A stretch of 64,000 nt of DNA from Kiritimatiellia bacterium. Its GTDB lineage: Bacteria > Verrucomicrobiota > Kiritimatiellia > CAIQIC01 > Lenti-01. The notes under the pieces were generated by a model. The model had not been told where the DNA came from and ran no database searches. It worked only from the letters and a program-made list of their open reading frames with translations. Shown piece by piece: positions 1,170 to 63,940 of this stretch; the stretch's first letter is position 1; each line of letters starts with the position of its first letter. Made by a program: the position numbers and the translations under genes. The DNA lies in contig JAFXQI010000042.1 in NCBI GenBank assembly GCA_017527155.1, positions 67,600-131,599 of the forward strand, written 5' to 3'.

Positions 1170-2471
1170 TCAGGCGGAGGCGAGGCGGCGGGCGAGGGCG
1201 GCGGCGAGGGAGGGGAAGTCGGGGGCGTCGGGGAAGAGGCCCGCGGCGGCGACTTCGTGGCCGGGGCCGCTGCGGCCGTGGGTGCCGCGGATGCGGGAGG
1301 TGTTCTGGGAGGTGTGCGGGGGCGGGAAGGCGAAGTGCAGTTCGCAGGGGTCGAAGCCGGGTTTGTTGTGGATGTCCATCTGGCTGGCGTAGTCGGGGGC
1401 CTGGCGGGGGGAGGTCCACCAGGGGTAGGCGAACCAGCGGCCGGGGGCGGCGATGAGGAGGAAGTCGCCGGAGCGGGGTTCGTGCAGGACCTCCAGGGTG
1501 CGCTGGGCGTCGGGGTCGAGGACGAGGTCGATGCCGTCGAGGTGCTCCAAAAGGCGGCGGACGGCAGGGCGGTCGGAGGGGGAGGGGACGTGGACGTGGG
1601 CGATCTGGTGGTCGACGATGGCGAAGGCGCGGGAGGTGTAGAAGTCGGGGTAGAGCATCCCGGCGACGGCGCGGGTATGGAAGAGTCCGGCGTCGCGGAG
1701 GGCGCGGTTGGGGAACACGGCGCCGTCGGGGAGGGTGACGGGCTCGATGGCGTAGTCGCCGGTGACGAGCCATTCGTAGCCGAGGGTGGCCGCGGCGTCG
1801 AGGAGGGGGTCGAGCTGGGCGAGGGCTTCGCGGAGGGCGGCGGCGGCCTGGGGGGAGTCGGGGCCGTGGCGCTGCTGGGCGTAGTCGAGGGAGGAGAGGT
1901 AGAGGAAAAGGTGGTCGGGGGAATCGGGACGGCGGAGGATTTCGGCGGCGGCGGCGGCTTCCCAGCGGCCGACGCGTTCGCCGGAGAGGGGGCCCCAGTA
2001 GCGGTAGAGGTCGAATTTGCGGCCGATGGCGCGGCAGAGGTCGGCGTAGAGGGGCTCGGGGCGGGTGTAGCAGTCCATGACGATGCCGCCGTGGTGGCGG
2101 TGGATCGGCTTGGGCGAGAGGAGGAGGTCGAGGCTTTCGCCGAGGCTCTGCTGCCAGAAGGCCATGCCCACGGTTTCGCCGCGGGCGCGGGCGGCGTCCC
2201 AGATTCGCGGTCCGCGGACGAGGGCGGCGGACTGTTCCCAGAAGTAGGGGCGGGCGAGGTCGCGGTGGTACCAGCCGGAGGCGACGACGCCGTGTCCGGC
2301 GGGCGGCAGGGCGGTGCGGAGGGTGGCCTGCGCGGGGCACGTCAGCGAGAGGGGTCCGGGGAGGATGGGGCGGAAGGGGATTTTGGTTTGCGGCTTGTGG
2401 CGCTCGATGAGGTTCCAGCCGAGGCCGGCGGCGACGACGACGAGGGTTTTGCGGGGGGCGGAGGCGGTCAT
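1170..2471 (-). CDS. Alkaline-phosphatase superfamily protein (type I phosphodiesterase / nucleotide pyrophosphatase-like)
   Basis: Start [20 protein letters not shown] at 2471 (residue 114 of ORF 1170..2810). The remainder has AP-superfamily character ([35 protein letters not shown]). The R/P-rich N-terminal extension of the ORF is discarded as non-coding. Confidence 0.55.
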
Positions 2472-2890
2472 GGTTCTTCGGTTTCCAGTATGGCGAGTTG
2501 GACGGGACGGAGGGTGGAGGCGGCGTCGCGGAGGGTCAGGAGGGTCCAGCGGCGGGGCGGGGGAGGCAGCGGGGGGCGGTCGGCGAGGCGGGAGACGGCG
2601 CGGGGAGGAGGGGGCGGCGGCACGAGGAGTTCGTCGCGGTCGATGCGCCAGGGGGAGGGGGCGTCGGTGGCGGTCTCGGCGGGACGGAGGCGGGCCTGGA
2701 CGTGGAGGGTGCGGAGGCGGAGGGTCTGGCCGCGGAGCGTTTCCGCGCGGCGCAGGGCGCGGGAGGACTGGAGGGTGGCGGTGGCGGCGACGCCGGCGAG
2801 CAGAACGCACAGGGCGAGCGCGCCGAGGACTTCGACGAGGGTGAAGCCGCGGGAGGCCGGGCGGGGAAATGGGGGGAGGGGCGAGGTCAT
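2468..2890 (-). CDS. Prepilin-type N-terminal cleavage/methylation domain protein (type II secretion pseudopilin / type IV pilin-like)
   Basis: Start MTSPLPPFPRPASRGFTLVEVLGALALCVLLAGVAATA at 2890. The G-F-T-L-V-E motif followed by a hydrophobic helix is the prepilin signature. The stop overlaps the ATG of the downstream AP-family gene (TGATG-type junction). Confidence 0.65.
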   Translation of the reverse strand: MTSPLPPFPRPASRGFTLVEVLGALALCVLLAGVAATATLQSSRALRRAETLRGQTLRLRTLHVQARLRPAETATDAPSPWRIDRDELLVPPPPPPRAVSRLADRPPLPPPPRRWTLLTLRDAASTLRPVQLAILETEEP

Positions 2891-3110
2891 CTTGCGTTGG
2901 GTGTCATTGTGCGGAAACGGGGCGGGACTGCAAGTGGGAAATGGGGGGAAGGAGCAGGAAAATCCATGGGAGGAGGATGGGGGTGGAAACAGGGGGATTT
3001 CAAGGAGTTTTCCTTGATATCGCAAGTGGTTGGAACGGGGCGGGGGAGAGGCGGGGGAGCGGAGGAGAAAGGCGTTGCGCGGAGGGGGGGAGGGGGATAG
3101 AGTGGAGGGC

Positions 3111-6894: not shown

Positions 6895-6926
6895 GGGGGG
6901 GCTCCTGGGTTTTCGGTGGGGGGCTG

Positions 6927-6982
6927 TTTTTCTAGATTTCTAGATAACTAGATTCCTAGGAAACTAGATTCTCTAGATTTCC
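6927..6982. repeat. AT-rich CTAG palindromic repeat cluster, locus L1 (tctagatttctagataactagattcctaggaaactagattctctagatttcc)
   Basis: A CTAGAT-rich island lies in an otherwise roughly 70 % GC context. It overlaps the hisC TAG stop and sits 33-88 nt upstream of the rfbA start. It is related to L2 (27463-27493), L3 (34463-34496) and L4 (53320-53356). Confidence 0.5.
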
Positions 6983-13122: not shown

Positions 13123-14790
13123 ATGGCCGGCGAATACATCTTCACGCTCAACCACCTATCCAAGACGCACGACCGGACGACGGTGCTCGACGACATCACG
13201 CTGTCGTTCTTCTTCGGCGCCAAGATCGGCGTCATCGGCGGCAACGGCGCCGGCAAATCGACGCTGCTGCGCATCCTCGCGGGCCAGGACAAGGATTACC
13301 ACGGCGAGTGCATCATCGCGCAGGGGCTGCGGATCGGGTACCTTCCGCAGGAGCCGCAGCTCGACCCGTCGAAGGACGTCGCGGGCAATGTCGCGGAGGG
13401 CGCCGCCGCCGCGCAGGCCATCCTCGACCGCTACGACGAGCTCTGCGACAAGCTCGGCGGCGACCTCTCCGACGATGAGTCCGCGAAGATCGGCGACGAG
13501 ATGGACCGCCTCCAGTCCATCATCGACGCCCGCGACCTCTGGAGCCTCGACAGCCAGATCGAGCGCGCCATGGACGCCCTGCGCCTGCCGCCCGGCGATG
13601 CCGACGTGACAAAACTCTCCGGCGGCGAGAAGCGCCGCGTGGCCCTCTGCCGCCTGCTGCTCTCGAATCCCGACGCGCTGCTCCTCGACGAGCCGACGAA
13701 CCACCTCGACGCGGAGACGGTCGCCTGGCTGGAGGAGTACCTCAAGAAGTTCGCCGGGACGCTCGTCGTCGTGACCCACGACCGCTACTTCCTCAACGAC
13801 GTCACCGAATGGATCCTCGAAATGGACGGCGGCCACGGCTACCCCTACAAGGGCAACTACGAGCAGTGGCTCGAAGCCAAGCGCGCGCAGGCCGCCGTCG
13901 CCAGCAAGCAGAACGCGTCGCGCCAGAAGATGCTCGACCGCGAACTCGAGTGGATCCGCCTCAATCCCACCGGCCGCATGAGCAAGAACAAGGCCCGCCT
14001 CGCCCGCTACGAGGAACTCGCCGCCAAGCAGGTCGACACCCGCGAGGACACGCTCGAAATCCAGATTCCGTCCGGCAAGCGCCTCGGCGACCTCGTCGTG
14101 CGCGCGGACGGGCTGCGGAAGGTGTACGGCAACCGGCTCGTCATGGACAACGTGTCGTTCAACCTGCCGCGCGGCGGCATCGTCGGCGTCATCGGCCCCA
14201 ACGGCGCCGGCAAGACGACGCTCCTGCGCATGATCGTCGGCGAGGAGAAGCCCGACGGCGGAACCCTCACCGTCGGCGAGACGGTGGAGCTCTCCTACGT
14301 CAACCAGTTCCGCGACGAGCTGAAGGCGGAGAACACCGTGTTCGAGGAAATCACCGGCGGCCAGGAAACCCTCGACCTCGGCGGCAAGCCGATGAACGCG
14401 CGCGCCTACTGCACGCGGTTCAACTTCCGCGGCGCCGACCAGCAGAAGAAGGTCGGCGAGCTCTCCGGCGGCGAACGCAACCGCGTGCACCTCGCCAAGC
14501 TGCTGCGGCGCGGCGGCAACCTGCTGCTGCTCGACGAACCGACCAACGACCTCGACGTCACGACCCTGCGCGCCCTGGAGGAAGGCATCCAGAACTTCGG
14601 CGGGTGCGCCGTCGTGGTCAGCCACGACCGCTGGTTCCTCGACCGCATCGCGACCCACATCCTCGCCTTCGAGGACGACGGCTCCGTCACCTGGTTCGAA
14701 GGCAACTTCGAAGGCTACCACGAACAGCGCCGCCGTCTCCTCGGCGACGCCGCCGACCAGCCCAAGCGCATCCGCTTCCGTCCCATCTGA
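13123..14790 (+). CDS. ettA: Energy-dependent translational throttle protein EttA (ABC-F ATPase)
   Basis: MAGEYIFTLNHLSKTHDRTTVLDDITLSFFFGAKIGVIGGNGAGKSTLLRIL... has two ABC cassettes over 555 aa. AAGGAG precedes the ATG. Confidence 0.9.
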   Translation: MAGEYIFTLNHLSKTHDRTTVLDDITLSFFFGAKIGVIGGNGAGKSTLLRILAGQDKDYHGECIIAQGLRIGYLPQEPQLDPSKDVAGNVAEGAAAAQAILDRYDELCDKLGGDLSDDESAKIGDEMDRLQSIIDARDLWSLDSQIERAMDALRLPPGDADVTKLSGGEKRRVALCRLLLSNPDALLLDEPTNHLDAETVAWLEEYLKKFAGTLVVVTHDRYFLNDVTEWILEMDGGHGYPYKGNYEQWLEAKRAQAAVASKQNASRQKMLDRELEWIRLNPTGRMSKNKARLARYEELAAKQVDTREDTLEIQIPSGKRLGDLVVRADGLRKVYGNRLVMDNVSFNLPRGGIVGVIGPNGAGKTTLLRMIVGEEKPDGGTLTVGETVELSYVNQFRDELKAENTVFEEITGGQETLDLGGKPMNARAYCTRFNFRGADQQKKVGELSGGERNRVHLAKLLRRGGNLLLLDEPTNDLDVTTLRALEEGIQNFGGCAVVVSHDRWFLDRIATHILAFEDDGSVTWFEGNFEGYHEQRRRLLGDAADQPKRIRFRPI

Positions 14791-14854: not shown

Positions 14855-14970
14855 CCTCCGCCCGTTGTTTCCCAGTGCGGACGCGCAGAAGCGCGTCCCT
14901 CCCCGTGGAGAGCGCACCGGGAGGGTCGCGCTTCCGCGCGACCATGTGGTAGGGAAGCGTTCGGGAAGCT
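14855..14970 (-). repeat. GC-rich multi-hairpin interspersed element, copy A (inverted orientation)
   Basis: The reverse complement matches copies at 37515-37620, 40537-40640 and 62652-62848: ttctg(c/t)(a/g)gcttccc...ccaca(a/t)ggtcgcgcggaagcgcgaccctcccgg..ccacggggagggacgcgcttctgcgcgtccgc. It lies between the convergent ettA and folK. Confidence 0.6.
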
Positions 14971-15062
14971 GCAGAAAAACGTAAACCGATCCAACGCGCT
15001 CGGGGCGCAAATCCTGCTCGTGTGTCGGGCGATCTCTCCGGGCGAGCCGTTTTGCCCCCGCT

Positions 15063-17385: not shown

Positions 17386-18255
17386 CTACAGTCCGGGAGG
17401 CAATCCCGGCCCGGGCGGCAGGAACCCCGTCAGCACCTCTGTCCTCAATGCCTCCAGCTTCGGCGGCAGGTCGCGCGCCTGCAGGAAATCCACCAGCTCG
17501 CGGCGGGCGTTTTCCAGCATTACTTCGTCGGGCGGCTTCCCTCCGGCGCCCCCCGGACGCGGCAGGCGCCGCAGGCCCAGCGCGTCGTTCACGTGCGATT
17601 GCAGGCGGGTGAAATTCCAGTGCGCCCGCATCAGGCGCGAGAGGCGGCGTTTCGCCGCCGCGTATTGCGCCTGCAACACCGGGGGAACCGCTGCGGAAGC
17701 CTCCTCGCCGGGCAGCAACCATTCCAGCGGAAGCCGTTCGTCCAGGGCCAGAAGGGCGCGGAGGCGGACGGCGAGGCGCATGTAGCGCATGAGGGTCGAG
17801 TAGTTCATCCCGATGCGGTTGTCGGCCAGCCAGCCCCGGACGCCGCGGCCACGGCCCCGGATGCGTTTTGCGCCCGAAGGAGAGATATCGTAGAGGTTGC
17901 TGCGGTCGAGCGTCGGCGCCAGGTCCGCCAGGCGCGACCCGATCCGCAGGCGCACCGCGAGCGTGCGGGGCCGTACCGCCGCGTCGTCGGCGAACTCCTC
18001 CGGCGTCGGCGTCCCGCGCAGCGACGGCGAGGGCGGCCGCGGCACACGGAGACGGGTCCGGCGGCGCAGCTCGGAGAGGATGGCCTGTCCGCTGTCGGCC
18101 AGCCAGCTGCCGAGGGCGGCCGCCGAGAGCGCGGCGATCCCCGCGACGGCGACGGGCAGGACCACGGGCAGGGCAAGAGGCAGGGCGTAGGCGCGGGCGA
18201 CGTCGCCGGCAATCCCGGCGGCCTCGCGGAGGGTGTATTTGACCGTGTTGTTCAT
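17386..18255 (-). CDS. Hypothetical membrane-anchored protein, paralog family copy 2
   Basis: Start [23 protein letters not shown] (M61 of ORF 17386..18435). About 70 % identity to copies 1 and 3. The stop lies 105 nt upstream of dapA. Confidence 0.55.
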   Translation of the reverse strand: MNNTVKYTLREAAGIAGDVARAYALPLALPVVLPVAVAGIAALSAAALGSWLADSGQAILSELRRRTRLRVPRPPSPSLRGTPTPEEFADDAAVRPRTLAVRLRIGSRLADLAPTLDRSNLYDISPSGAKRIRGRGRGVRGWLADNRIGMNYSTLMRYMRLAVRLRALLALDERLPLEWLLPGEEASAAVPPVLQAQYAAAKRRLSRLMRAHWNFTRLQSHVNDALGLRRLPRPGGAGGKPPDEVMLENARRELVDFLQARDLPPKLEALRTEVLTGFLPPGPGLPPGL

Positions 18256-18318
18256 GGGCGGGAGCATGACGGTTGGGCTTGTGGAAGTCAAGTGTTTTTC
18301 CTGTTTCCAAAAGTGGCA
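18256..18318 (-). promoter_or_regulatory. Conserved upstream element of the paralog family, copy 2
   Basis: Gene orientation reads ...CACTTTTGGAAACAGGAAAAACACTTGACT-TCCACAAGCCCAACCGT-CATGCT-CCCGCCC-ATG. Spacing is the same as in copies 1 and 3. Confidence 0.35.
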
Positions 18319-24701: not shown

Positions 24702-24783
24702 GCCGGAGTGGCGGAATGGCAGACGCAGCAGACTCAAAATCTGCCGCCCTCTGGGCGTAAGGGTTCAAGTCCCTTCTCCGGTA
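24702..24783 (+). tRNA. tRNA-Leu (anticodon CAA)
   Basis: Hand fold: acceptor GCCGGAG/CTCCGGT, anticodon stem gcaga/tctgc with loop cTCAAaa, a long variable arm cgccctctgggcgt (class II), T-arm aaggg-ttcaagt-ccctt. CCA is not encoded. Confidence 0.8.
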
Positions 24784-24798
24784 CACTTCGGGCGACGC

Positions 24799-24889
24799 GG
24801 AGAGGTGCCAGAGTGGCCTATCGGGCACGCCTGGAGAGCGTGAGTGCTCCAAAAGGGCACCGTGGGTTCAAATCCCACCCTCTCCGCCA
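24799..24889 (+). tRNA. tRNA-Ser (anticodon GGA)
   Basis: Acceptor GGAGAGG/CCTCTCC, anticodon stem cacgc/gcgtg with loop cTGGAga, a long variable arm, T-arm gtggg-ttcaaat-cccac, discriminator G, CCA encoded. Confidence 0.8.
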
Positions 24890-26386: not shown

Positions 26387-27475
26387 GTGCAAGACCTGCT
26401 CATCCTCGGCATCGAATCCTCGTGCGACGAGACGGCGGCGGCCGTCGTGCGCGGCGGCCGCGAGGTGCTCTCCTCGGCGGTCATCAGCCAGATCGCCCAG
26501 CACCGGCCCTACGGCGGCGTCGTGCCGGAAATCGCCTCGCGCGGCCACGTGGAAGCGTTTCCGGCGGTGGTATCGGAAGCGATGGCGAACGCCGGGGCGG
26601 GGTGGGGGGACCTCGACGCCATCGCGGTGACGTACGGCCCCGGACTGGTCAGTTCGCTCCTCGTGGGCCTCTCCGGCGCGCGCGCGCTGGGACAGGCCGT
26701 CGGCAAGCCGGTATGGGGCGTCAACCACATGGAAGGCCACCTGGCGGGCATGTTCCTCGACCCCGCCACGCCGCCGCCGGAGGAGCTGTGCCCCGCGGTG
26801 GTCCTGCTGGTGTCGGGCGGCCACTCCTACGTCGTGGAGATGCGCGCCGCCGGCGACTACCGCCTGCTCGGCCAGACCATCGACGACGCGGCCGGCGAAT
26901 GCCTCGACAAGGGCGCCAACCTGCTCGGTCTCGGCTATCCCGGCGGACCCGCCATCGAGCGCGCCGCCGCGGGCGGCGACCCGGCCTACGTCCGCTTCCC
27001 GCGCGGCATGGAACACGCCAAGGCGCGCACCACCGAGGACGGGCTCGATCTCGCCTACTGCTTCAGTTTCAGCGGTCTCAAGACCTCCCTCCTCCAGCGC
27101 CTCCGCACCCATCCCGACGACCTGCCCTCGCACCTCGCCGACCTCGCCGCGTCCTACCAGGAAGCCGTCATGGAATCGCTCGCCAAGCGCGCCGACCGGG
27201 CCCTCAAGGCGACCGGCGCGCGCACGCTCGCCTGCGTCGGCGGCGTCGCCAGGAACCGCGTCCTGCGCGCCAAGCTCGAAGCCATCGCGCGCCGCCGCCG
27301 CGCCGTCCTGCGGCTCGCCCCGCTGGCCTACTGCACCGACAACGCCGCCATGATCGCCGCCGCCGCCGGACTCCGCGCCCGCGCCGGCCTCCCGAATCCG
27401 CCGGCCCTCGAAGCCGACCCCAGCCTCCCGCTGGTCGAAGAGCCGGGGGGAGTTGCCGGGGGTCTAGATATCTAG
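26387..27475 (+). CDS. tsaD: tRNA N6-adenosine threonylcarbamoyltransferase TsaD
   Basis: GTG start; MQDLLILGIESSCDETAAAVV...HMEGHL matches the Kae1/TsaD family. Its final codons plus the TAG stop (L-D-I-*) are encoded by the palindrome ctagatatctag. Confidence 0.85.
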   Translation: MQDLLILGIESSCDETAAAVVRGGREVLSSAVISQIAQHRPYGGVVPEIASRGHVEAFPAVVSEAMANAGAGWGDLDAIAVTYGPGLVSSLLVGLSGARALGQAVGKPVWGVNHMEGHLAGMFLDPATPPPEELCPAVVLLVSGGHSYVVEMRAAGDYRLLGQTIDDAAGECLDKGANLLGLGYPGGPAIERAAAGGDPAYVRFPRGMEHAKARTTEDGLDLAYCFSFSGLKTSLLQRLRTHPDDLPSHLADLAASYQEAVMESLAKRADRALKATGARTLACVGGVARNRVLRAKLEAIARRRRAVLRLAPLAYCTDNAAMIAAAAGLRARAGLPNPPALEADPSLPLVEEPGGVAGGLDI

Positions 27476-27493
27476 GTTCCTAGGTATCTAGGA
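27463..27493. repeat. AT-rich CTAG palindromic repeat, locus L2 (tctagatatctaggttcctaggtatctagga)
   Basis: Contains the perfect 12-bp palindrome ctagatatctag and the ctaggtatctagg core shared with L4. It spans the tsaD stop and ends 17 nt before the rlmN ATG. Confidence 0.5.
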
Positions 27494-27509
27494 TTTGCCC
27501 CCCCCCCGC

Positions 27510-34456: not shown

Positions 34457-34462
34457 GGGGGG

Positions 34463-34496
34463 AAACCTAGAAACCTGGATGTCTAGATATCCAGAA
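34463..34496. repeat. AT-rich CTAG palindromic repeat, locus L3 (aaacctagaaacctggatgtctagatatccagaa)
   Basis: Contains the tctagatatc core in a near-palindrome tctagata/tccaga. It begins about 6 nt upstream of the UbiA-family ATG, in the divergent intergenic region with the AKR gene. Confidence 0.45.
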
Positions 34497-34777
34497 TGCC
34501 GGGGAGCGGTGTGGGCATGGCGTCACCCACCGCCTGGAACGTGGGGGGAGCCGTCGTCGGTTGCTCGCGCAATCATGCGACAGTGGGGGGCGATGATGGT
34601 CATGGTGGAAATCCTTTCGTTCTTCGTCGGCGGGAAGCCCGACAAAAGACAAGCGGCGGAGCGGGGGGAAAGGTTCAGCGGGAGAATGGGGGCGGGGAAA
34701 GCGAGATTCGTGTGGCGGGGGCGGGGAGGATGTGGTAGTGAAAAGGGAAAGAACGGGTTCAAGGAAGGAGAGCGAAC

Positions 34778-37264: not shown

Positions 37265-37514
37265 GATCCATCTCCATTTGGTCTTTTCATCCACTCAACC
37301 AAATCCCCGCCCCGATGGAAACCTTTTTCCGCGCCGGAAGGGGAGGGGGGGCAGGACAAGACCATGGCGTTGGATCGGGCGGCCGTCCTCGGATGGGTTT
37401 CCCGGACGGCCTACCGGAGCGGGGCCGTCACGGAGGTCGCTGCGCCGCATCCCGTGCCGTGCCGATCCCGACTCCGTCGTCCGGTGGAGCGAGCTCGCCT
37501 GGAGCGGGTAAAGT

Positions 37515-37620
37515 TATTCTGTGGCTTCCCAGACGTTTCCCAACCACAAGGTCGCGCGGAAGCGCGACCCTCCCGGGGTGCGCTCTCCACGGGGAGGGAC
37601 GCGCTTCTGCGCGTCCGCCC
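37515..37620 (+). repeat. GC-rich multi-hairpin interspersed element, copy B
   Basis: ttctgtggcttcccagacgtttcccaaccacaaggtcgcgcggaagcgcgaccctcccggggtgcgctctccacggggagggacgcgcttctgcgcgtccgc. Hairpins are ggtcgcgc-GGAA-gcgcgacc, ccctccc...gggaggg and ggacgcgc-TTCT-gcgcgtcc. Confidence 0.6.
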
Positions 37621-39827: not shown

Positions 39828-40423
39828 TCGCGGAATCGCTGCGCGTGGTGCCCGCGAGCGAGGCGGAATGGCTCGGGCCGCTGGACGTGCGGACGCGGTT
39901 CGCGCATCCGGAGCGGCCGCTGGAGATCGACCTGGGCTGCGGCAAGGGGCGTTTCCTGCTGGCACACGCGGCGAAGCACCCGGAGGTGAACTTCTGGGGC
40001 ATCGACCGGATGCTCCGGCGGATCCGCAAGATCGACAACCGGGCGCGGCGGCTGGACCTGGAAAACATCCGTCTCTCGCGGATGGAGGCGTACTACGCGA
40101 CGACGTACTGGGTGCCGGAGGCGTCGGTGCGGACGATGTACGTGTTCTTCCCCGACCCGTGGCCCAAGGCGCGCCACGAAGGGCACCGGCTGTTCAATCC
40201 GCGCTTCCTCGACGCGCTGTGGCGGTCGCTGGAGCCGGGCGGGACGGTGCACGTGGCGACGGACCACGCGCCGTACTTCGAGCAGCTGTCGGAGGTGTTC
40301 GCGGCGGACGGACGGTTCGCGCCCGCGGAGGTGTTCGCGCCGCCGCCGGACGAGATGACCGACTTCGAGCTGTACTACGCCGACAAGAAGCCCATCGGGC
40401 GTCTCTCGGTGCGGAAGGGGTGA
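39824..40423 (+). CDS. trmB: tRNA (guanine46-N7)-methyltransferase
   Basis: GTG start overlaps the FAH-family stop (GTGA). TrmB motifs are EIDLGCGKGRFLL and FFPDPWPKARH. Confidence 0.75.
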   Translation: MIAESLRVVPASEAEWLGPLDVRTRFAHPERPLEIDLGCGKGRFLLAHAAKHPEVNFWGIDRMLRRIRKIDNRARRLDLENIRLSRMEAYYATTYWVPEASVRTMYVFFPDPWPKARHEGHRLFNPRFLDALWRSLEPGGTVHVATDHAPYFEQLSEVFAADGRFAPAEVFAPPPDEMTDFELYYADKKPIGRLSVRKG

Positions 40424-40536
40424 AACAGCGGAGAATGGCCCCCCACGGGCTCCTCTCCGTGTCGTGTCCGGCTCTCCACTCCCACGGGAGGGATCGTGAG
40501 CGGACGCCGACGAGGGCGGGCTAGAGCGGTTTGCGT

Positions 40537-40640
40537 CATTCTGTGGCTTCCCAGGCGTTTCCCAACCACAAGGTCGCGCGGAAGCGCGACCCTCCCGCTG
40601 TGCTCGCCACGGGGAGGGACGCGCTTCTGCGCGTCCGCGA
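40537..40640 (+). repeat. GC-rich multi-hairpin interspersed element, copy C
   Basis: ttctgtggcttcccaggcgtttcccaaccacaaggtcgcgcggaagcgcgaccctcccgctgtgctcgccacggggagggacgcgcttctgcgcgtccgc. Confidence 0.6.
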
Positions 40641-41241
40641 AAGAATAAGGTGAAGACACAATGGACTGCGGCCACATTAATTCTGAACCTGCCCCAAGAA
40701 ACACTGTGGTTGTTTCCGAACAGGAAAACTCCGAGGTTCTGGCCGAATGGCATCCCCCTCCATCGCTTGCACGTTCCAGTGCCCGGCGGCGAGGGGACTC
40801 GCCGTCCGTCCCACACAGCTTTGCACGAACGAAAAACTTCTTCACCTGACAACTCCATTGGACCCATTGGACAAAGCCAATGCGGAATGGTTGCCAAGGC
40901 CATGGAGTCCGGACAAAAAAAAGGTCCGTGCCAGGCTTGGGGGGGGGCACCTGGCACGGAGGAAACAGGCAGGGGCCCCGGGGGGGGGGAGGAGGGGCAT
41001 CTTCCTGCCTGCTTGTTGCGTGTTTAGCAACAAGATGTTCAAAATCGTTTGGGCGTTGAAAGAACGGTCTGTTTCTTGCGAAACTGGGGTGCACTATACT
41101 CTTTGCGTCTGGGGTGTCAAGAGGAAAAAGAAAAAATTTTCCGGTAGGTGGAACCGGGCCCGCCGGGAATGAAAAACTCCGCCGTGCGGACGGCGGAGCG
41201 CGAGGGGCCGGTGGAACGGCCCGGAGGGCAGGGGCGGGGGG

Positions 41242-44140: not shown

Positions 44141-44217
<77 letters not shown>

Positions 44218-47710: not shown

Positions 47711-48571
47711 TCACGGAAGAACCGTACCGCTCGCCCATCCGGCCAGCGCCTCCCGGCGCAGTGCTTCCAGTTTCGGGGGCAGGTCGCCGGCCTGCACGAA
47801 ATCCGCCAGCTCGCGGCGGGTGTTCTCCGCCAAGGTCTCGTCTAGGGGCTTGCCTCCGCCGCGTCCCGGACGCGGCAGGCGCCGCACCCCCAGCGCCCCG
47901 TCCACATGCGATTGCAGGCGGCTGAAGTTCCAGTGTGCCCTGAGCAGGCGCGCGAGGCGGCGTCGGGCCGCCGCGCAATGCGCCTGCAACGCCTCCGGCA
48001 CGGCCGCGGAAGCCTCCGCGCCCGGCAGCAACCATTCCAGCGGCAGCCGTTCGTCCAGACCCAGTAGCGCGCGGAGGCGGACGGCGAGACGCATGTAGCG
48101 CATGAGGGTCGAGTAGTTCATTCCGACGCGGTTGTCCTCCAGCCAGCCCCGGACGCCGCGGCCGCGGCCGCGGATGCGCTTTGCGCCCGTCGGCGAGATG
48201 TCGTAGTGGTTGCCGCGGTCGAGCGTCGGTGCCAGGTCCGCCAAGCGCGACCCGATCCGCAGGCGCACCGTCAGGGTCCGCGGGCGCACCGCCGCATCGG
48301 AGGCGAATTCCTCCGGCGTCGGCGTCCCGCGCAGGGAGGGCGATGGCGGGCGCGGCGCCCTCAGACGCGTCCGGCGGCGCAATTCGGAGAGGATGGCGCG
48401 TCCGGTGGCTCCGGCAATCCAGCTGCCGAGGGCCGCCGCCGAGAGGGCCGCGACACCGGCGAGGGCGGCGGGGACGAGGACGGGGAGGGCCAGGGAGCCG
48501 ACGTAGAACCGGGCGGTGTCGCCGGCGATGCCGGCAGCCTCCCGGAGAGCGTATTTGCAGGTGTTGTTCAT
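47711..48571 (-). CDS. Hypothetical membrane-anchored protein, paralog family copy 3
   Basis: Start [23 protein letters not shown] (M28 of ORF 47711..48652). About 70 % identity to copies 1 and 2. The stop lies 135 nt upstream of deoA. Confidence 0.55.
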   Translation of the reverse strand: MNNTCKYALREAAGIAGDTARFYVGSLALPVLVPAALAGVAALSAAALGSWIAGATGRAILSELRRRTRLRAPRPPSPSLRGTPTPEEFASDAAVRPRTLTVRLRIGSRLADLAPTLDRGNHYDISPTGAKRIRGRGRGVRGWLEDNRVGMNYSTLMRYMRLAVRLRALLGLDERLPLEWLLPGAEASAAVPEALQAHCAAARRRLARLLRAHWNFSRLQSHVDGALGVRRLPRPGRGGGKPLDETLAENTRRELADFVQAGDLPPKLEALRREALAGWASGTVLP

Positions 48572-48632
48572 GGGCGGGAGCTTGGGGAAGGGACGGTGGA
48601 AAGTCAAGGATTTTTCCTGTGTGCAAACGTGA
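48572..48632 (-). promoter_or_regulatory. Conserved upstream element of the paralog family, copy 3
   Basis: Gene orientation reads CACGTTTGCACACAGGAAAAATCCTTGACT-TTCCACCGTCCCTTCCC-CAAGCT-CCCGCCC-ATG. Confidence 0.35.
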
Positions 48633-53308: not shown

Positions 53309-53319
53309 GGGGGGGGGGG

Positions 53320-53356
53320 CTAGGTATCTAGGTTTCTAGGTATCTAGGTTTCTAGG
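53320..53356. repeat. AT-rich CTAG palindromic repeat, locus L4: tandem (ctaggtatctaggttt) x2 plus ctagg
   Basis: ctaggtatctaggtttctaggtatctaggtttctagg. It overlaps the TAG stop of the TrmH-family gene and ends about 12 nt upstream of the DUF721 gene ATG. Confidence 0.55.
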
Positions 53357-54233
53357 GGGAGTGGGAGTGGGGGCGGATGTAGTCGTCGGGGGGTGGGGGG
53401 GGGACGGGGCGGCGGCGCTGGCGGACGACTTCGTAGAGGAGGATGGTGGCGGCGGCGGCGACGTTCAGGGAGTCGGCCTGGCCCAGCATCGGGATGCGGA
53501 CGAGGTGGTCGGCGCCCTCCATCCAGGCGTCGCTCAGACCGAATTGTTCGGCGCCGACGATGACGGCGACGGGGCCGGTGAGGTCGATGTCGGTGTAGAA
53601 GGGCTCGGCGTGGGGGGAGGCGGCGACGGTGGCGATGTGGTGGGCGCGGAGCCAGGCGATGGTTTCCTGCGTGGTGGCTTCGGCGACGGGGACGGTGAAG
53701 AGGGTCCCGATGGAGGCGCGGACGACGTTGGGGTTGTTGATGTCGGTGCAGCGGTCGCAGACGATGAGGGCGTCGGCGCCGGCGGCGTCGGCGGTGCGCA
53801 GCATGGTGCCGAGGTTGCCCGGTTTTTCGATGTGTTCGCCGACGACGAGGAAGGGGTTGTCGGGGAGGACGAGGTCGGAGAGGGTGCGCCGGATCTGGGG
53901 GCAGAGGGCGAGGAGGCCTTCGGGGCGGTCGCGGTAGGCGATCTTCATGAAGACGGGTTCGGTGCATTCGGTGACGGCGGCGCCGGCGGCGCGGCAGCGT
54001 TCGACCAGGACGGGCTCGTTCTTGCCCTGGTAGAGGGACGGGCAGTGGAAGAGGCGCAGGACGGGGACGTGGTTGTCGAGAGCGCGCTTGACTTCGCGGT
54101 AGCCTTCGACGATCAGCCGGCCGGAGTCGTCGCGGTGGGACCGCTGGCGGAGGCGGACGACTTCCTTGACGAGCGGGTTCTGGAGGCTCGTCAGGAGGGG
54201 GGAGGGCGCGGGGTGGGGGGCGGGATGGCTCAC
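53352..54233 (-). CDS. TrmH/SpoU family RNA 2'-O-methyltransferase (RlmB-like)
   Basis: GTG start overlaps the metY stop (GTGA). SpoU N-terminal and MTase motifs (VVGEHIEKPGNLGTMLRTADAAGADALIV, IPMLGQADSLNVAAAATILLYE) are present. Confidence 0.7.
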   Translation of the reverse strand: MSHPAPHPAPSPLLTSLQNPLVKEVVRLRQRSHRDDSGRLIVEGYREVKRALDNHVPVLRLFHCPSLYQGKNEPVLVERCRAAGAAVTECTEPVFMKIAYRDRPEGLLALCPQIRRTLSDLVLPDNPFLVVGEHIEKPGNLGTMLRTADAAGADALIVCDRCTDINNPNVVRASIGTLFTVPVAEATTQETIAWLRAHHIATVAASPHAEPFYTDIDLTGPVAVIVGAEQFGLSDAWMEGADHLVRIPMLGQADSLNVAAAATILLYEVVRQRRRPVPPPPPDDYIRPHSHSP

Positions 54234-61600: not shown

Positions 61601-62444
61601 AACCGGCATAATAATAGTCGTAGCCCATGATGATCGAGTAATCCACGCCGATCTTCTCGTACTCCCCGACCGCGAAGTCCGCGTACCAGTCCACCGACGG
61701 CAGGCAGATCGAGACTTCCAGGTTGGCCGCGTGCGCCTTCGCGACGAGATTGCTCATGAACGCCGTCAGCGCCTTCGTCGCCCCCGACCACGACCCGACC
61801 GACTCGAAGTCGATGCAGATCCCGTCCCCGCCGCGTGCCGTGGTTTTCGCGACGAGATTGGTGATCAGCTTCGTGCAGGCCGCGCTGTTGGTGAGCAGCG
61901 CGTGGTTGGCGGTCTCGCCGAAGAGCGTCGCCGTGAGGAGAACCTTCACGCCGTTGGAATGCGCGGTTTCGACGACGGGATCCGTGTTCCACCCATGGAG
62001 GCTGGAGATGCTTCCGGCGCTCCCGACCTCGGCGGAAAAATACGCGACGTGGGTCAGGTTGGAGTAGTCATAGGAGAGATAATCCCCCGCCTCGGCCCAG
62101 TAGGGATGCCACCCGAGCACGCGCGCCCCGTCCGCGATGCCGGTGGCCCGCGGCGTGATGACCGACTTCTTCGGCACGGCCCTGAGCGCCTTGCGCCGCT
62201 GCGCCGCCGTCTGCCCGTCCGGATGCGCCTCCATCTCCAGCTGGTGGATGGGGACGAACCCCGCGAAATCCGCCGGCGGCGCGAACGGGAAATCCGCCTC
62301 CGAAACGTCCGGCACCTCGAACGGCGGCGGATCGTCGGCCACGTCGCCTTCTTCCTCGATCTGGGCCTTCGCGCACCATGGCACGGCCACGGCGAAAAGG
62401 GCGGAAAGGGTCAATGCACGGCGGACAATACGGATGGCTTTCAT
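55686..62444 (-). CDS. Giant secreted multidomain protein (2252 aa): GH18 chitinase-like domain, beta-sandwich (FN3/Ig-like) repeats, an Amidase_3/M14-like zinc-hydrolase domain, and C-terminal thrombospondin-type-3 Ca-binding repeats
   Basis: Start MKAIRIVRRALTLSALFAVAVPWCAKAQ (signal peptide) inside ORF 55686..63578. The GH18 catalytic motif is DGICIDFE (DxxDxDxE) with GVDYSIIMGYDYYY. An amidase-like region follows (VAAGHG...LSFHSNA...AEVAFHDKELD). The TSP3-like stretch is DTDSDGIPDWW...DPDADGFTNLEEYHLGTDPND. A G/S linker is encoded by ggagccgccgcc repeats. Confidence 0.7.
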   Translation of the reverse strand: MKAIRIVRRALTLSALFAVAVPWCAKAQIEEEGDVADDPPPFEVPDVSEADFPFAPPADFAGFVPIHQLEMEAHPDGQTAAQRRKALRAVPKKSVITPRATGIADGARVLGWHPYWAEAGDYLSYDYSNLTHVAYFSAEVGSAGSISSLHGWNTDPVVETAHSNGVKVLLTATLFGETANHALLTNSAACTKLITNLVAKTTARGGDGICIDFESVGSWSGATKALTAFMSNLVAKAHAANLEVSICLPSVDWYADFAVGEYEKIGVDYSIIMGYDYYYAGSATPGPVAPLYSSAQWQGASSWCSVDYSTRYYLNKMTNAAHLMLAVPYYGRRWKSATTSIGSKSCGSSYSAAVTYPNAVAAAENHGRQWDSNGSVPYYAYKSGTNAYQCFYDDAESLGLKYDYAKSKGLGGVGIWCLTHAPEAEELWELLGEKFDTYSGGGSGGGSGASAPDARATGIGASSALFSWTPAVVDPAGYVVQSAPTPEGLADGWWEDVPLVFSNSFSSAEGWVTNNVTTTTPTTVNVAGSAWGLRGKLELRPGITNYQDPGYVYLTYSNSYIQTPPVSGTVTQLAVRVRAAAASNYEGRKLRVLAAPAGSTGFTTVGTYACSNVSAILDYATACSISNPGGTVFRFENVTTGEPTTVLLHSFVATGTTTNWVAATGTPLADTCATNLTGLSSPVSLRVRNASSTNWSDIVTVTPGMVPSGLAAEPAATNIALSWTAAPGAAAYQVDVASGPYTNWTATCPSASLGTNQFLTGQSWCYTGTVRTVTTSSNLGAGPGYCSTAKYAGHYLAGHPGQALQSWDFPLYGATSANLSFSNCPWNAAKSTVGITCSVLRVYYRLDQGPWNFLGECRAASTDDEDWSAQSYDLPYLDGETLAVKIVAPYAERHADSTSGSLRGAGLKNIKLSFSGTTGRYCDANRPEGYPKTVTSPSDTIEGLSPETPYWIRVQALTENTRSVWVETTATTTEETGGDEPSTEITPVSTTWDFTVPEGWSLCDDALYSGETNVNNHAWNLGNCYVRPTDETSGDTGYVYLYKPTNSWATTPAFAGVVTQVTTLFRPASAADTRQATLYASTNGGASFSPVGVCATPLKQTYTNTFSFSPALDGGEHGVIFCASNSGTAGSIQWRRLTIEGTSTAPEEPDADSWSPFGTSTAEQPHGALSGIVLYVAAGHGFTANGQTNAWAAGRGITYGMVEDMGTIDQLNYFALQAWKAGATVVPMRPLGYQTNEVVIDNVDTAASLASRVTYGGNWGNTSQTDYYHGKAGEVGYRWANICATGTTAWASFRPSLPAAGEYPVYVWARPGSDRVPQLYRVHHAGGVTDVRVDHRQVGNGWVWLGNYWFDAGTNGCVNISNFAPGFDDGTVIADAVRFGNGMGDISRGTAGKSGYERELEGARYWTQRMVLDSQGLPDSIYNSTASYDQDDNVSAPNRMAYAMCRTNDWPRWRRLYLSFHSNASGSQRGCMGLYDTRVTGSYLAGQTNLARCIANSIVSNMTAAHAHGLVATAWQQDCARTLGSHYGEIYGGSIWTKMDNTIAEVAFHDKELDAAIMKSPTGREWLARSALRGILRHFVTRYATDSTLTVREICAPDAPVAVAATNSGPNCVTVSWQMPHGTNRMSDPHTGFVIYVSTNGYAFGNPVAITSPADEYAHKFTDLPAGNPYYFRVCATNLGGESLSSPVAGAGLSSDGSTADVLVVDGFKRNDGAQSPTRYFANNLKGNVTLVRPRMINSFDYVKEHGNAIAAAGRSFDYMDASRVTSSDLARYPKVVWCLGEESTADETFTYDEQQRLAAFLDNGGALFVSGSEIGWDLSAKGSDSDKAFMTNYLHCTYVADDGGSAIVSGKSGTFLSGTRADFNYTNNLPDIYAANYPDTLAPVGEAFVAATYGGTSGTNGAIIACSNSVCRTVVAGFPFETITDATRRNTLMKKILDFFDANQTAPAWTGETAYTTGVGGEITIDLKSQVTGFPSPAVTLVGTFDSRTGDEIDDSAYAIAEDIFIFEAPAAGAYTFTFRAENAAGSIEQDVTVTAGNAPAWQPLGDLLVDLDAAPILNLYQYVSGEYPLITLDAAHTVADEYTYSFDVGTGYLEINSSYPATNVFTFIASNTLGTASVTFTNAIRRLDTDSDGIPDWWAIAHFGGATACNPNLDPDADGFTNLEEYHLGTDPNDGASFFRLDAEADSTGTLLSWPSATGVTYQLSFTTNLLLPASTSQFAITNTPPVSMYFDTNSTPATFYHLRATCPTP

Positions 62445-62651
62445 GCTTTCGATTTTACCCCCACGCGCGCGCGGAGGAAAGCCGAAAAAGCGGGGAGGAA
62501 TGGAGCGGAGGGCATCCCGCTTTGTGCAAGGTGCAAGCCCGGAAGCGGAGAGGGAGGACGGGGGAAAACTCCGATTGGTCCGATGGCCCGGGATGCGGGA
62601 GAAACGCGCGAAGCCGGCGGTTCCAGCGGGGAATGGGGGGCTTCCTCTTTT

Positions 62652-62848
62652 CCTGCAGCTTTCCGGACGTTTTTCCACCACAAGGTCGCGCGGAAGCGCG
62701 ACCCTCCCGGTGCGTTCTCCAGGGGGAGGGACGCGCTTCTGCGCGTCCGCGGGGGAAACCGGACGTTTTTCCACCACAAGGTCGCGCGGAAGCGCGACCC
62801 TCCCGGTGCGTTCTCCACGGGGAGGGACGCGCTTCTGCGCGTCCGCGG
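62652..62848 (+). repeat. GC-rich multi-hairpin interspersed element, two tandem copies (D and E)
   Basis: Two consecutive units of about 98 bp lie immediately upstream of the giant gene's start. Each is ccaccacaaggtcgcgcggaagcgcgaccctcccggtgcgttctcca(g/c)ggggagggacgcgcttctgcgcgtccgc. The 204-aa ORF 62441..63055 (-) with a duplicated peptide is their translation artefact. Confidence 0.6.
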
Positions 62849-63061
62849 TGGAAATGCCCGGAGGGACGATGGATGGAGGCCCCCCTGTTCCTTTGAGCGG
62901 TTCAAGAAACAGTACAGCTCCTGTTTCGCCTTCCAGACTGGTGGGGGCGAGCTCTCCGAGCGAGCCGTTCCTTGCGCCTCTGAGGCTCGCACGGAGTGCT
63001 CGCCCTGCCAGGCCCCTGTCACGGGGCGACCACGGTATTTCTCGACCCGCTCCAAACCGCG

Positions 63062-63940
63062 CTAGGGGGCGAAGACGCGGGTGCGGAAGAAGCGGACGAC
63101 GGCGCGGTGGCGGATGCGGATGCGGTTCTGGTAGGGGAGAAGGCTGGCGGGGGGCCAGTGGAGCATCTCCATTTCCAGGTCCAGCGACGGGGTGTAGCGG
63201 TTGTCGAGGTACCACGCGTAGGCGAGGCCGAAGAAGATGCCGCAGGGCAGGAAGCCGGTATCGCGGGGAACCGCGCGCCACCAGCGGAGGGGCTCGCCGG
63301 GGCGCGGCTGCATCTGGGACAGGTGGAGGCCTTCGGCGAGGTCGCGGTCGCCGAAGAAGCAGTGGCGGGCGCCTGCGGGGCGGAGGCGGATTTCGTAGAC
63401 GCGGCAGGCGGCGGAGGGGTCGTCGAGCCAGCGTTTTTCGTCGATGTAGTCGCCGAGGAGGGATTCGCCGAGGGCGATGGCGAAGTTGGCCATCAGGGTC
63501 TGCGGGGTGGCCAGGGCCTGGGCGTGGAGGTTGATGGTGGAGGTGGCGGGATCGTAGTAGCCCTGGATGTTGTCCCATTCCTGGCTGCGGGTCCAGCGGT
63601 CGGCGGGGACGACGCGGATGCGGCGGACGCGGGCGAGGTGGGAGGGGAGGATGTCGGCGTGCTTCCAGAGGAAGTCTTCGAGGAGGGGCCGGAGGGTGGG
63701 GGGGGAGACGGGGATGCGGGAGAGGGCGGTGCGGCAGGACTCCATGCGGGAAAAGGCGGTGGGGGCGTCGGTGGCGAGGGGGGAGGGGACCGCGGCGTTT
63801 CCGCCGCGGCGCGGGACCTCTTGGCGCGGGACTGCCGGGAGAGCGGGGGGGCGAGGGCGGGCGGGGCGGGGGGAGGCGGAGAGTTCTTCGTAGAGGGTGC
63901 GGAGGGCGGCGGCGAAGCGGGCGGCGTCGTGGTGGAGCAT
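63062..63940 (-). CDS. Hypothetical protein
   Basis: The 292-aa ORF starts MLHHDAARFAAALRTLYEEL. Its C-terminal half (WDNIQGYYDPATSTINLHAQALATPQTLMANFAIALGESLLGDYIDEKRWL) looks globular and non-repetitive. No family recognised. The true start could lie beyond 63940. Confidence 0.35.
   Translation of the reverse strand: MLHHDAARFAAALRTLYEELSASPRPARPRPPALPAVPRQEVPRRGGNAAVPSPLATDAPTAFSRMESCRTALSRIPVSPPTLRPLLEDFLWKHADILPSHLARVRRIRVVPADRWTRSQEWDNIQGYYDPATSTINLHAQALATPQTLMANFAIALGESLLGDYIDEKRWLDDPSAACRVYEIRLRPAGARHCFFGDRDLAEGLHLSQMQPRPGEPLRWWRAVPRDTGFLPCGIFFGLAYAWYLDNRYTPSLDLEMEMLHWPPASLLPYQNRIRIRHRAVVRFFRTRVFAP

Follow-up and report, generated by a model that had tools for sequence, protein, structure and literature searches.

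Dispersed palindromic elements with a probable REP-doublet core in the intergenic DNA of a Kiritimatiellia bacterium

A 64-kb stretch of contig JAFXQI010000042.1 from a Kiritimatiellia bacterium (69% G+C; hereafter the window) carries five copies of a GC-rich palindromic element, each built around two hairpins with conserved tags. The copies are probably repetitive extragenic palindromic (REP) doublets of the REPIN type, that is, non-coding and non-autonomous palindromic elements linked to a REP-associated tyrosine transposase (RAYT), and they are either intact or decaying. The copies, and an element nested among them, are listed below by position and strand. The first and last hairpins of the core are called hp1 and hp3, and scores refer to a profile hidden Markov model (HMM) built from 20 full-length relatives of the element.

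14855..14992, minus strand: copy c1; degenerate left terminus TGGATCGGTTTACG at 14993-14980, hp1 with tag at 14943-14919, tag with hp3 at 14903-14877, right arm shortened; HMM match 14992-14855, model positions 2-149, 129 bits
37500..37618, plus strand: copy c2; left terminus TGGAGCGGGTAAAG and left arm, hp1 at 37550-37574, hp3 at 37592-37618, right arm lacking; HMM match 37500-37618, model positions 1-117, 121 bits
40522..40696, plus strand: copy c3; left terminus TAGAGCGGTTTGCG at 40522-40535, hp1 at 40572-40596, hp3 at 40612-40638, degenerate right terminus ending in CTGAACCTGCCCCA at about 40683-40696; HMM match 40522-40694, model positions 1-172, 170 bits
62648..62758, plus strand: copy c4a, the first tandem unit; partial left arm, hp1 at 62684-62708, hp3 at 62724-62750; HMM match 62648-62758, model positions 15-125, 109 bits
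62759..62892, plus strand: copy c4b, the second tandem unit; inner left arm, hp1 at 62780-62804, hp3 at 62820-62846, right arm as far as CCTGTTCCT; HMM match 62759-62894, model positions 30-164
62893..63053, plus strand: sister element; similar termini and outer arms (TTGAGCGGTTCAAG at the start, CGACCCGCTCCA at the end), core doublet GGGGCGAGCTCTCCGAGCGAGCC ... GGCTCGCACGGAGTGCTCGCCC at about 62941-63008
63054..63064, plus strand: displaced end of the c4b right terminus, 11 nt, AAACCGCGCTA

A motif search allowing up to three mismatches returned these five copies as ten hairpin modules. The module made of hp1 and its tag, GGTCGCGCGGAAGCGCGACCCTCCC, is exact at 14919-14943 (minus strand), 37550, 40572, 62684 and 62780, and its partner, the tag with hp3 (GGGAGGGACGCGCTTCTGCGCGTCCGC), is exact at all five partner positions; neither has a further site in the window. 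Chance matches to the two modules were seen in 0 of 100 dinucleotide-preserving shuffles, and the family HMM recovers the same five copies and no others. All five sites of a preliminary description of this DNA, including its tandem pair, were therefore re-found by both searches, and alignment of the five copies bore out its consensus. Its limits proved slightly narrow, with c3 running about 60 nt further 3', and its element of about 105 bp covers only the core of a palindrome of about 172 nt that is bounded by terminal inverted repeats.

The complete unit of about 172 nt, as seen in the best-preserved copies, starts with TAGAGCGGTTTAAG and ends with CTTAAACCGCTCTA; c3 is the only near-complete copy in the window. 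In the core, a single module is present twice in opposite orientations; in this module, GGWCGCGC-N4-GCGCGWCC-CCCTCCC, a hairpin with an 8-bp stem and a 4-nt loop is followed by a tag. The two tags face each other (hairpin-CCCTCCC ... GGGAGGG-hairpin) across a spacer of 12-16 nt. Apart from three mismatches, hp3 is the reverse complement of hp1, and the core arms are complementary at 22 of 25 positions. The core is flanked by imperfectly complementary arms of about 50 nt each, which end in the terminal inverted repeats. Copies c4a and c4b lie head to tail with a 96-nt period. This sole tandem case repeats the intervening sequence too, and the remaining copies are dispersed, so the possibility of a CRISPR array was rejected.

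Every copy in the window is intergenic, as had been described. Copy c1 lies 70 nt past the stop codon of folK (minus strand, 15063), in the same orientation as folK, and the convergent ettA (plus strand) ends at 14790. Copy c2 occupies a divergent gap between a minus-strand gene starting at about 37264 and rnhC (plus strand, start 37874), and c3 lies 98 nt past the stop codon of trmB (plus strand, 40423) in a convergent gap. The gap holding c4 is 617 nt long; a large minus-strand gene starts at 62444 on one side, and on the other an upstream minus-strand gene (63062..63940) stops at 63062. The c4 copies are thus antisense between two co-directional genes, and the piece at 63054-63064 abuts the stop codon of 63062..63940. 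The protein encoded downstream of c4 is 2252 aa long, with a signal peptide and GH18, Golvesin_C, Amidase_3 and fn3 domains. The neighbours named in the preliminary description (convergent ettA and folK, the divergent rnhC gap, the position after trmB and that upstream of a giant hydrolase gene) all stood, except for a 'LapA-like' label on a gene that has no Pfam hit. The spurious open reading frames (ORFs) that it expected are also present: public gene calls put ORFs of 46 aa and 239 aa on c2 and c3, and a window ORF covers 62441..63055.

When folded with ViennaRNA, full-length copies form one long imperfect hairpin in which hp1 pairs with hp3. Two relatives from other loci reach -97.7 kcal/mol (L076; z = -8.7 against shuffles) and -95.8 kcal/mol (L065; z = -7.3), and c3 reaches -72.7 kcal/mol (z = -2.5). 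For the 65-nt core, the long hairpin is favoured over three separate hairpins both as RNA (-48.4 vs -41.1 kcal/mol) and as DNA (-28.3 vs -25.0 kcal/mol), because hp1 and hp3 are inverted copies. The three-hairpin fold first proposed is a valid alternative, with its hairpins as described, but it is less stable than the single long one. Two stem positions swap T:A for A:T between hp1 and hp3, and the loops are GGAA and AGAA, respectively. As a result of the swaps each local hairpin is perfect, while the long hairpin gains two mismatches. This corresponds to the REP heterodimers of Di Nocera, De Gregorio & Rocco 2013 (PMC3733652), an arrangement thought to avoid perfect long palindromes.

Folds of this stability could also indicate a structured RNA, such as a small RNA gene or a cis-acting element whose helices are selected at the RNA level, as the preliminary description had suggested as one option. 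The z values of -8.7 and -7.3 fit this explanation, as do the GNRA-type GGAA loop of hp1 and the compensated pairs in the arms (column 3/195, AU 14 and GC 4; column 25/172, GC 12 and AU 4). However, no Rfam family matches the element at its gathering threshold or at E<=10, the best sub-threshold hit scoring 22 bits against a gathering score of 111. Across 33 full-length copies, the arm helices are paired in 74% of cells (81% in the terminal helix), compared to 32-45% with slid partner columns, which shows that the arms are complementary. Covariation in the arms is weak: a single measure out of five is marginal (32 double-change cells, against 24.7 +/- 3.6 in column shuffles, of which 18 of 500 reach this value), the other four are indistinguishable from shuffles, and RNAalifold reports 0 compensated pairs, in an alignment whose core stems are fixed by the search pattern. 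The hairpin stems show compensated changes and the outer arms are barely above shuffles; the compensation among hairpin variants is equally well explained by recognition of hairpins in single-stranded DNA. Furthermore, the best copy in the window, c3, barely beats its shuffles, the central loop is found in either orientation, and truncated copies have persisted. Neither promoter-like nor terminator-like signals were found within or beside c2 and c3, and the hairpins lack a following U-tract, the sequences past hp3 being GCACTGGG, GCCCCCCC, GCGAAAGA and GCGGGGGA. An intrinsic terminator was ruled out for the same reasons.

The placement of the copies relative to genes bears on the same question. 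In the window they are found on the same strand past a gene, upstream of a gene and antisense. A crude tally of 41 gaps, made with an ORF classifier based on G+C at third codon positions (GC3), gave 21 convergent, 16 tandem and 4 divergent gaps; because the classifier is error-prone and mis-called the window sites of c3 and c4, this is a rough trend only. In the tandem gaps of this tally, copies run with the genes in 8 cases and against them in 8, so the orientation bias that the preliminary description had proposed to look for is absent. With no Rfam match, U-tract or strand bias, with weak arm covariation and with flipped central spacers, we consider an RNA gene or RNA element very improbable.

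The hairpin-CCCTCCC module was found well beyond this family. In the collected DNA, 450 of 1188 CCCTCCC sites are preceded by a perfect 8-bp/4-nt hairpin, compared to 0-10 for each of four control heptamers. There are 18 distinct stems, including fully compensated variants at stem positions 3 and 5-8 (GGTCACGC, GGACGCGG, GGTCGCAA, GGACGTGC and others), and the GG...CC and the CCCTCCC tag are invariant across all of them.

We screened the ORFs of all collected loci with Y1-transposase baits and then with an HMM of 73 homologs. The first RAYT bait was the E. coli YafM sequence, used for bait alone, and every match was re-verified with Pfam, NCBIfam and PDB. RAYT genes flanked by the module were found in seven contig groups, all from other organisms (L072, L111, P0004, P0003, P0002, P0005 and P0011). 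In L072, a Nitrospirales metagenome-assembled genome (MAG), a 160-aa ORF matches Pfam Y1_Tnp and NCBIfam NF047646, 'REP-associated tyrosine transposase', with 91.3 bits (cutoff 80), and lies between flanking copies of GGGAGGGTCGCGCTCCCGCGCGACC and GGTCGCGCAGGAGCGCGACCCTCCC. The JGI metagenome contig L111 encodes a 152-aa RAYT with the HUH motif PDHVHFF and the catalytic-tyrosine motif YMRDNPV; 82-nt tandem units adjoin it on both sides, each with the exact window 25-mer including its GGAA loop; the partner hairpin in these units differs from the window hp3 at two positions. This RAYT has 93 homologs at E <= 1e-10, several of them named 'REP element-mobilizing transposase RayT' by JGI, and the best PDB match is E. 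coli TnpArep (4er8, E 1.5e-8). NF047646 scores elsewhere are 92.4 for P0005 and 81.7 for P0004, above the cutoff of 80, and 69.5 for P0001, below it; Pfam PF01797 matches the RAYT proteins. On the contigs of five further homologs (L229-231, L233-238, L249), each RAYT is again flanked by hairpin-CCCTCCC modules, and L236/L237 and L249 show hairpin-CCCTCCC-spacer-GGGAGGG-hairpin, the same layout as the window core.

Judged by its sequence and its company, the module would be a REP in the strict sense. Passages of PMC3733652 recognise two REP superfamilies, tagged GTAG and CGTC. No GTAG or CGTC tag was seen beside the stem, where the invariant tag is CCCTCCC/GGGAGGG, which places the module outside both published superfamilies. 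According to Bertels et al. 2017 (PMC5581495), only RAYT groups 2 and 3 are clearly tied to abundant REPs.

One other enzyme was considered as the cognate transposase and rejected. Contig L136 (3.8 kb), which also carries a composite copy at 70-229, encodes at 1932-3035 a 343-aa Y1/HUH transposase (Pfam Y1_Tnp 54 bits; NF047646 69.9 bits, cutoff 80). The gene is bounded in 'TIRtron'-like fashion by 25-nt inverted repeats, CTAAACTCTAAGTTATTAGTTGTTG, found nowhere else in the collected DNA. Because these flanks are unrelated, unique inverted repeats, the enzyme is not assignable to the family. Tyrosine-transposase genes flanked by non-GTAG repeats (TIRtrons/TIRYTs) are on record in passages of PMC3733652.

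To describe the distribution of the family, a genome collection was scanned for GGTCGCGC-N4-GCGCGACCCTCCC, which gave at least 104 loci. Among the matches listed, the sources are rumen Lentisphaerae, Kiritimatiellae, Hydrogenedentes, Nitrospirales, Verrucomicrobia and some others. Single or tandemly repeated hairpins with an AGGA or GGGA loop make up the majority, and the composite with the GGAA loop occurs only in two MAGs, RGIG6903 (from sheep rumen, Kiritimatiellae) and RUG11196. When metagenomes were scanned for the GGAA-loop 25-mer, at least 120 stretches were returned, many of which carry the composite. Over the collected DNA, at least 101 composite matches reach 60 bits or more with the HMM; 38 are full length, and together they occupy at least 99 distinct flanking contexts. 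Outside the window, and among the matches listed, the composite was seen only in ruminant-gut metagenome contigs and in RGIG6903 and RUG11196, and there were 0 matches in viral contigs. Since the family is abundant elsewhere, it is not confined to these 64 kb, a confinement that the preliminary description had named as telling against its proposal. Short-read contigs end inside or beside c2 and c3, and five copies in 64 kb together with contigs that break at copies imply many copies in the genome. Contigs with an identical EttA or FAA-hydrolase, including the European Nucleotide Archive (ENA) ruminant-gut set XIEF21-1, are 100% identical to the window across c1, c2 and c3, and no strain-level polymorphism of these copies was found among them. 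The window EttA is identical to a protein labelled 'MAG: Kiritimatiellae bacterium' at NCBI.

It should also be noted that the AGGA-loop REP module forms tight head-to-tail arrays in Lentisphaerae MAGs, with periods of 33, 42, 58 and 64 nt (arrays at L020 4468-4620, L038 5274-5364, L006 504-586 and L037 3767-3833). These arrays look CRISPR-like, yet their intervening sequence repeats too.

Searching the joined flanks of every copy against all collected DNA revealed two pairs of filled and empty sites. A copy at L065 (RGIG6903) is absent at the orthologous L183 and L155, with flanks 86% identical over 241 nt and one gap, and a copy at L008 (RUG11196) is absent at L190. The breakpoints of both pairs coincide with the outer termini of the unit, indicating that what was gained or lost was the unit of about 172 nt and not just its REP core. 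At the empty sites the sequence is ccggaTCgagg in one case and cccccTGacgc in the other, in orthologs 86-90% identical. Among flank pairs TA...TA is the commonest, TG...CA, TG...TG and mixed pairs also occur, and no target duplication extends beyond a dinucleotide. Some copies carry internal deletions (L119, L206, L207, L217, L222), and in others the central spacer is flipped (L139, L143, L200). Like the tandem pair, the nested element and the contigs that break at c2 and c3, these rearrangements point to turnover of the family as DNA.

The sister element at 62893-63053 has kindred termini and outer arms around a different core, a GGGGCGAGC...GCTCGCCC doublet. When it is removed, the c4b alignment runs across the join and reaches HMM position 173 with 126.5 rather than 122.3 bits, which indicates that the sister element is nested in the right terminus of c4b. 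The same nested arrangement is present at L176, and L065 has a GGGGCGAGC doublet inside the right arm of a copy. The same termini bound other cores at L146, L183, L194, L170, L031 and L176. As they are shared by different cores, the termini and arms act as a common chassis. The REP doublet core is also found with alternative 3' modules (...GGACAGGGGAGTTGCCAGGCGAAAACCTTGCG...GGGCCCGACCTCCGGGCGG) and with homodimeric partners GGGAGGGTCGCGCTTCCGCGCGACC (L067 2387-2480, L077, L211, L224, L126), which indicates extensive mosaicism among the repeat families. Beside composites on ruminant-gut contigs (L131, L201, L206, L226 and the L008/L190 flanks) are arrays of a palindromic motif, TTTTCCAATCATTGGAAAA, with GGTTGG variants; this is another interspersed repeat or operator-like family of the same organisms.

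These shared ends raise the possibility of a classical miniature inverted-repeat transposable element (MITE). A DDE transposase, for example an IS630-like, TA-duplicating one, would recognise the 14-nt terminal inverted repeats, and the REP doublet would be a passenger or a captured sequence, or else the palindromic chassis would be a preferred landing site for REP doublets. The terminal inverted repeats themselves, the prevalence of TA...TA flanks, the identical termini and outer arms around different cores in sister families, and the insertion breakpoints at the termini are all consistent with this explanation. Some copies also have TG...CA termini, which are typical of the ends of DDE elements. 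However, the roughly 1.6 Mb of collected loci hold no autonomous element with these termini, and the inverted terminus pairs examined, 400-4000 bp apart, enclose housekeeping genes (at L039, lpxB and an oxidoreductase). The two empty sites read TC and TG, not TA; the terminal dinucleotides form an inverted pair (TA/TA, TG/CA) more often than a direct repeat (TG/TG), and nothing beyond the dinucleotide is duplicated. In addition, the RAYT gene of L249 is directly flanked by composite units with palindromic flanks. With the REPs at the centre and ends that sister families share, a DDE-type MITE carrying a REP passenger, or a landing-pad model, is a serious rival. We regard the DDE-type MITE as the main rival, although on the evidence above it appears doubtful.

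A related proposal is that the chassis (TAGAGCGGTTTAAG and the outer arms) is a separate modular layer with interchangeable REP-type cores, and that the GGGAGGG-tagged REPs are a third, horizontally spreading superfamily. The hairpin-CCCTCCC REP and its RAYT clade span Kiritimatiellae, Lentisphaerae, Nitrospirales, Hydrogenedentes and other groups, in which the 25-mer is nearly identical. We put this forward tentatively, as a possibility with some way to go before it could be called likely. If the chassis is modular, the element would be a hybrid moved by two enzyme systems, or a palindromic landing pad colonised by different RAYT-driven REP doublets.

A role in the host could also explain the persistence of the copies. 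As proposed for E. coli REP and bacterial interspersed mosaic elements (BIMEs), they might act as punctuation elements, such as stabilisers of mRNA 3' ends, attenuators, or sites for gyrase or nucleoid proteins, with transposition no longer active. The crude tally favours convergent and tandem over divergent gaps, as passages of PMC3733652 report for REPs; c1 and c3 lie just past gene ends, and copies are identical across strain-level contigs. On the other side, no U-tract follows the hairpins, the tally comes from a classifier that mis-called two window sites, and the varied truncations fit decay better than a maintained function. Such a role is compatible with a mobile origin and would be an addition to it rather than an alternative; as an explanation on its own we find it unlikely.

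Several observations weigh against the identification of the copies as REPINs. The REPs are central, and the ends of the unit are set by arms of about 50 nt with terminal inverted repeats, unlike in known REPINs. The termini also enclose unrelated cores in sister families, which suggests that the mobilising enzyme may recognise the termini and not the REPs. TA...TA flanks most copies, as would also be expected after insertion by a TA-duplicating DDE transposase. The search for a cognate RAYT that the preliminary description had proposed gave module-flanked RAYT genes in other organisms: no RAYT was detected in the window or in the collected RGIG6903 and RUG11196 loci by phmmer and the 73-sequence RAYT HMM. 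The distribution is also patchy, since contigs with EttA relatives at 98, 89 and 88% identity have no copies in about 98 kb, and no synteny around ettA.

Taken with these points, the data still favour RAYT-associated REP doublets as the probable identity of the copies. The REP/BIME- or MITE-like nature first proposed is supported by REP modules of a RAYT clade, by presence/absence polymorphism and by abundance outside the window. The best-supported assessment is that the family is undescribed and specific to rumen Kiritimatiellae, and that its kind, REP/REPIN-type, is already known; a literature search found no paper joining Kiritimatiellae with REPs. If the copies are REP doublets, the hairpin-plus-tag module would be recognised by a RAYT, which is a HUH/Y1 tyrosine transposase encoded by a single-copy gene and acting on single-stranded DNA. 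The gene for it would lie elsewhere in the genome, and the enzyme would act in trans, copying the unit into intergenic DNA. There, copies would erode as they lose an arm, suffer internal deletions, have their central loop flipped, are duplicated in tandem or receive nested insertions. We infer that the source genome encodes such a RAYT and that this enzyme moves the whole 172-nt unit. If transcribed, the copies are predicted to form very stable hairpins (-70 to -98 kcal/mol) and may thereby have a secondary effect on the 3' ends of adjacent mRNAs.

The closest known systems are the REP/REPIN-RAYT pairs of Pseudomonas and Enterobacteria (Bertels & Rainey 2011, PMC3116915; PMC5581495; TnpArep of E. 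coli, 4er8). The shared features are a short GC-rich hairpin with a conserved unpaired tag, two inverted copies forming a larger hairpin, an extragenic, probably multi-copy distribution and, in other organisms, modules flanking single-copy HUH/Y1 genes that score with NF047646 (REP_Tyr_transpos). The differences are the tag (GGGAGGG/CCCTCCC here, GTAG or CGTC there), the hosts (uncultured PVC-group and other non-proteobacterial lineages) and the position of the REPs, which here lie at the centre of a longer palindrome and in known REPINs form the ends. REP dimers within a conserved long palindrome are described in passages of PMC3733652 for A. variabilis GTAG-15 and H. neapolitanus CGTC-1, with the REP-less form not found. 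Those dimers resemble the window copies in being embedded and, as heterodimers, in having partners that differ in stem and loop; the copies here differ in sequence and host and in their longer arms (about 50 nt each), which are common to sister families with other cores. The copies do not exactly match the GGGGWSAS motif given in passages of the same paper.

Correia elements (Neisseria), ERIC/IRU and other bacterial MITEs are likewise non-coding, intergenic, imperfect palindromes of 100-200 nt with terminal inverted repeats, which form whole-element hairpins if transcribed, create spurious ORFs and break assemblies. Correia elements also have TA at both flanks, the commonest flank pair of the present family. 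These elements share no sequence similarity with it and are without a RAYT-type REP doublet core. The mosaic of inverted palindromic units with conserved linkers, the tandem units (here c4a and c4b) and the interleaving of neighbouring families recall the BIMEs of E. coli, which differ in their unit sequences.

The window contains further features of separate interest. Four short arrays of an 8-bp-period unit, CTAG(A/G)TNT (e.g. CTAGATTTCTAGATAACTAGATTCCTAGG), lie at 6918-6976, 27458-27495, 34461-34498 and 53314-53359. CTAG is otherwise strongly depleted in the window: base composition predicts about 183 sites, but 23 are present, 17 of them inside the four arrays. Three of the arrays lie about 10-40 nt upstream of start codons of minus-strand genes, beside a G/C run, and at L224 an array of this type directly adjoins a composite element at its 5' end. 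A role as regulator-binding or 5'-leader arrays is possible. Three stretches of about 900 nt (230-1128, 17426-18315 and 47739-48631) share 73-88% mutual identity, are related to sequence in L068 and L105, and are probably paralogous genes. The only Rfam matches at gathering threshold are three tRNA genes (24702-24886 and 44141-44214), unrelated to the element. Between c3 and a flavodoxin-like gene, the roughly 540 nt at 40700-41240 have no coding signature, with a GC3 of 0.55-0.64 (about 0.9 in genes) and a G+C of 59% (69% in the window). A strong σ70-like promoter match (TTGACA-16-TATAGT, 11/12; 41120-41093, minus strand) points into this region, and the public 239-aa ORF at 40375-41094 has no Pfam hits. 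The region may be an unannotated non-coding RNA or leader.

The elements described here yield false gene calls and fragment short-read assemblies of rumen Kiritimatiellae, and for this reason a family model would improve the annotation and binning of MAGs. Until now, REP/REPIN-RAYT systems have been described almost exclusively from Proteobacteria, where the tag is GTAG or CGTC. That range is widened by a REP that is tagged GGGAGGG and has a RAYT clade of its own, in the PVC group and other uncultured lineages, and REPs held centrally in a shared chassis bear on which part of such an element the transposase recognises and moves.

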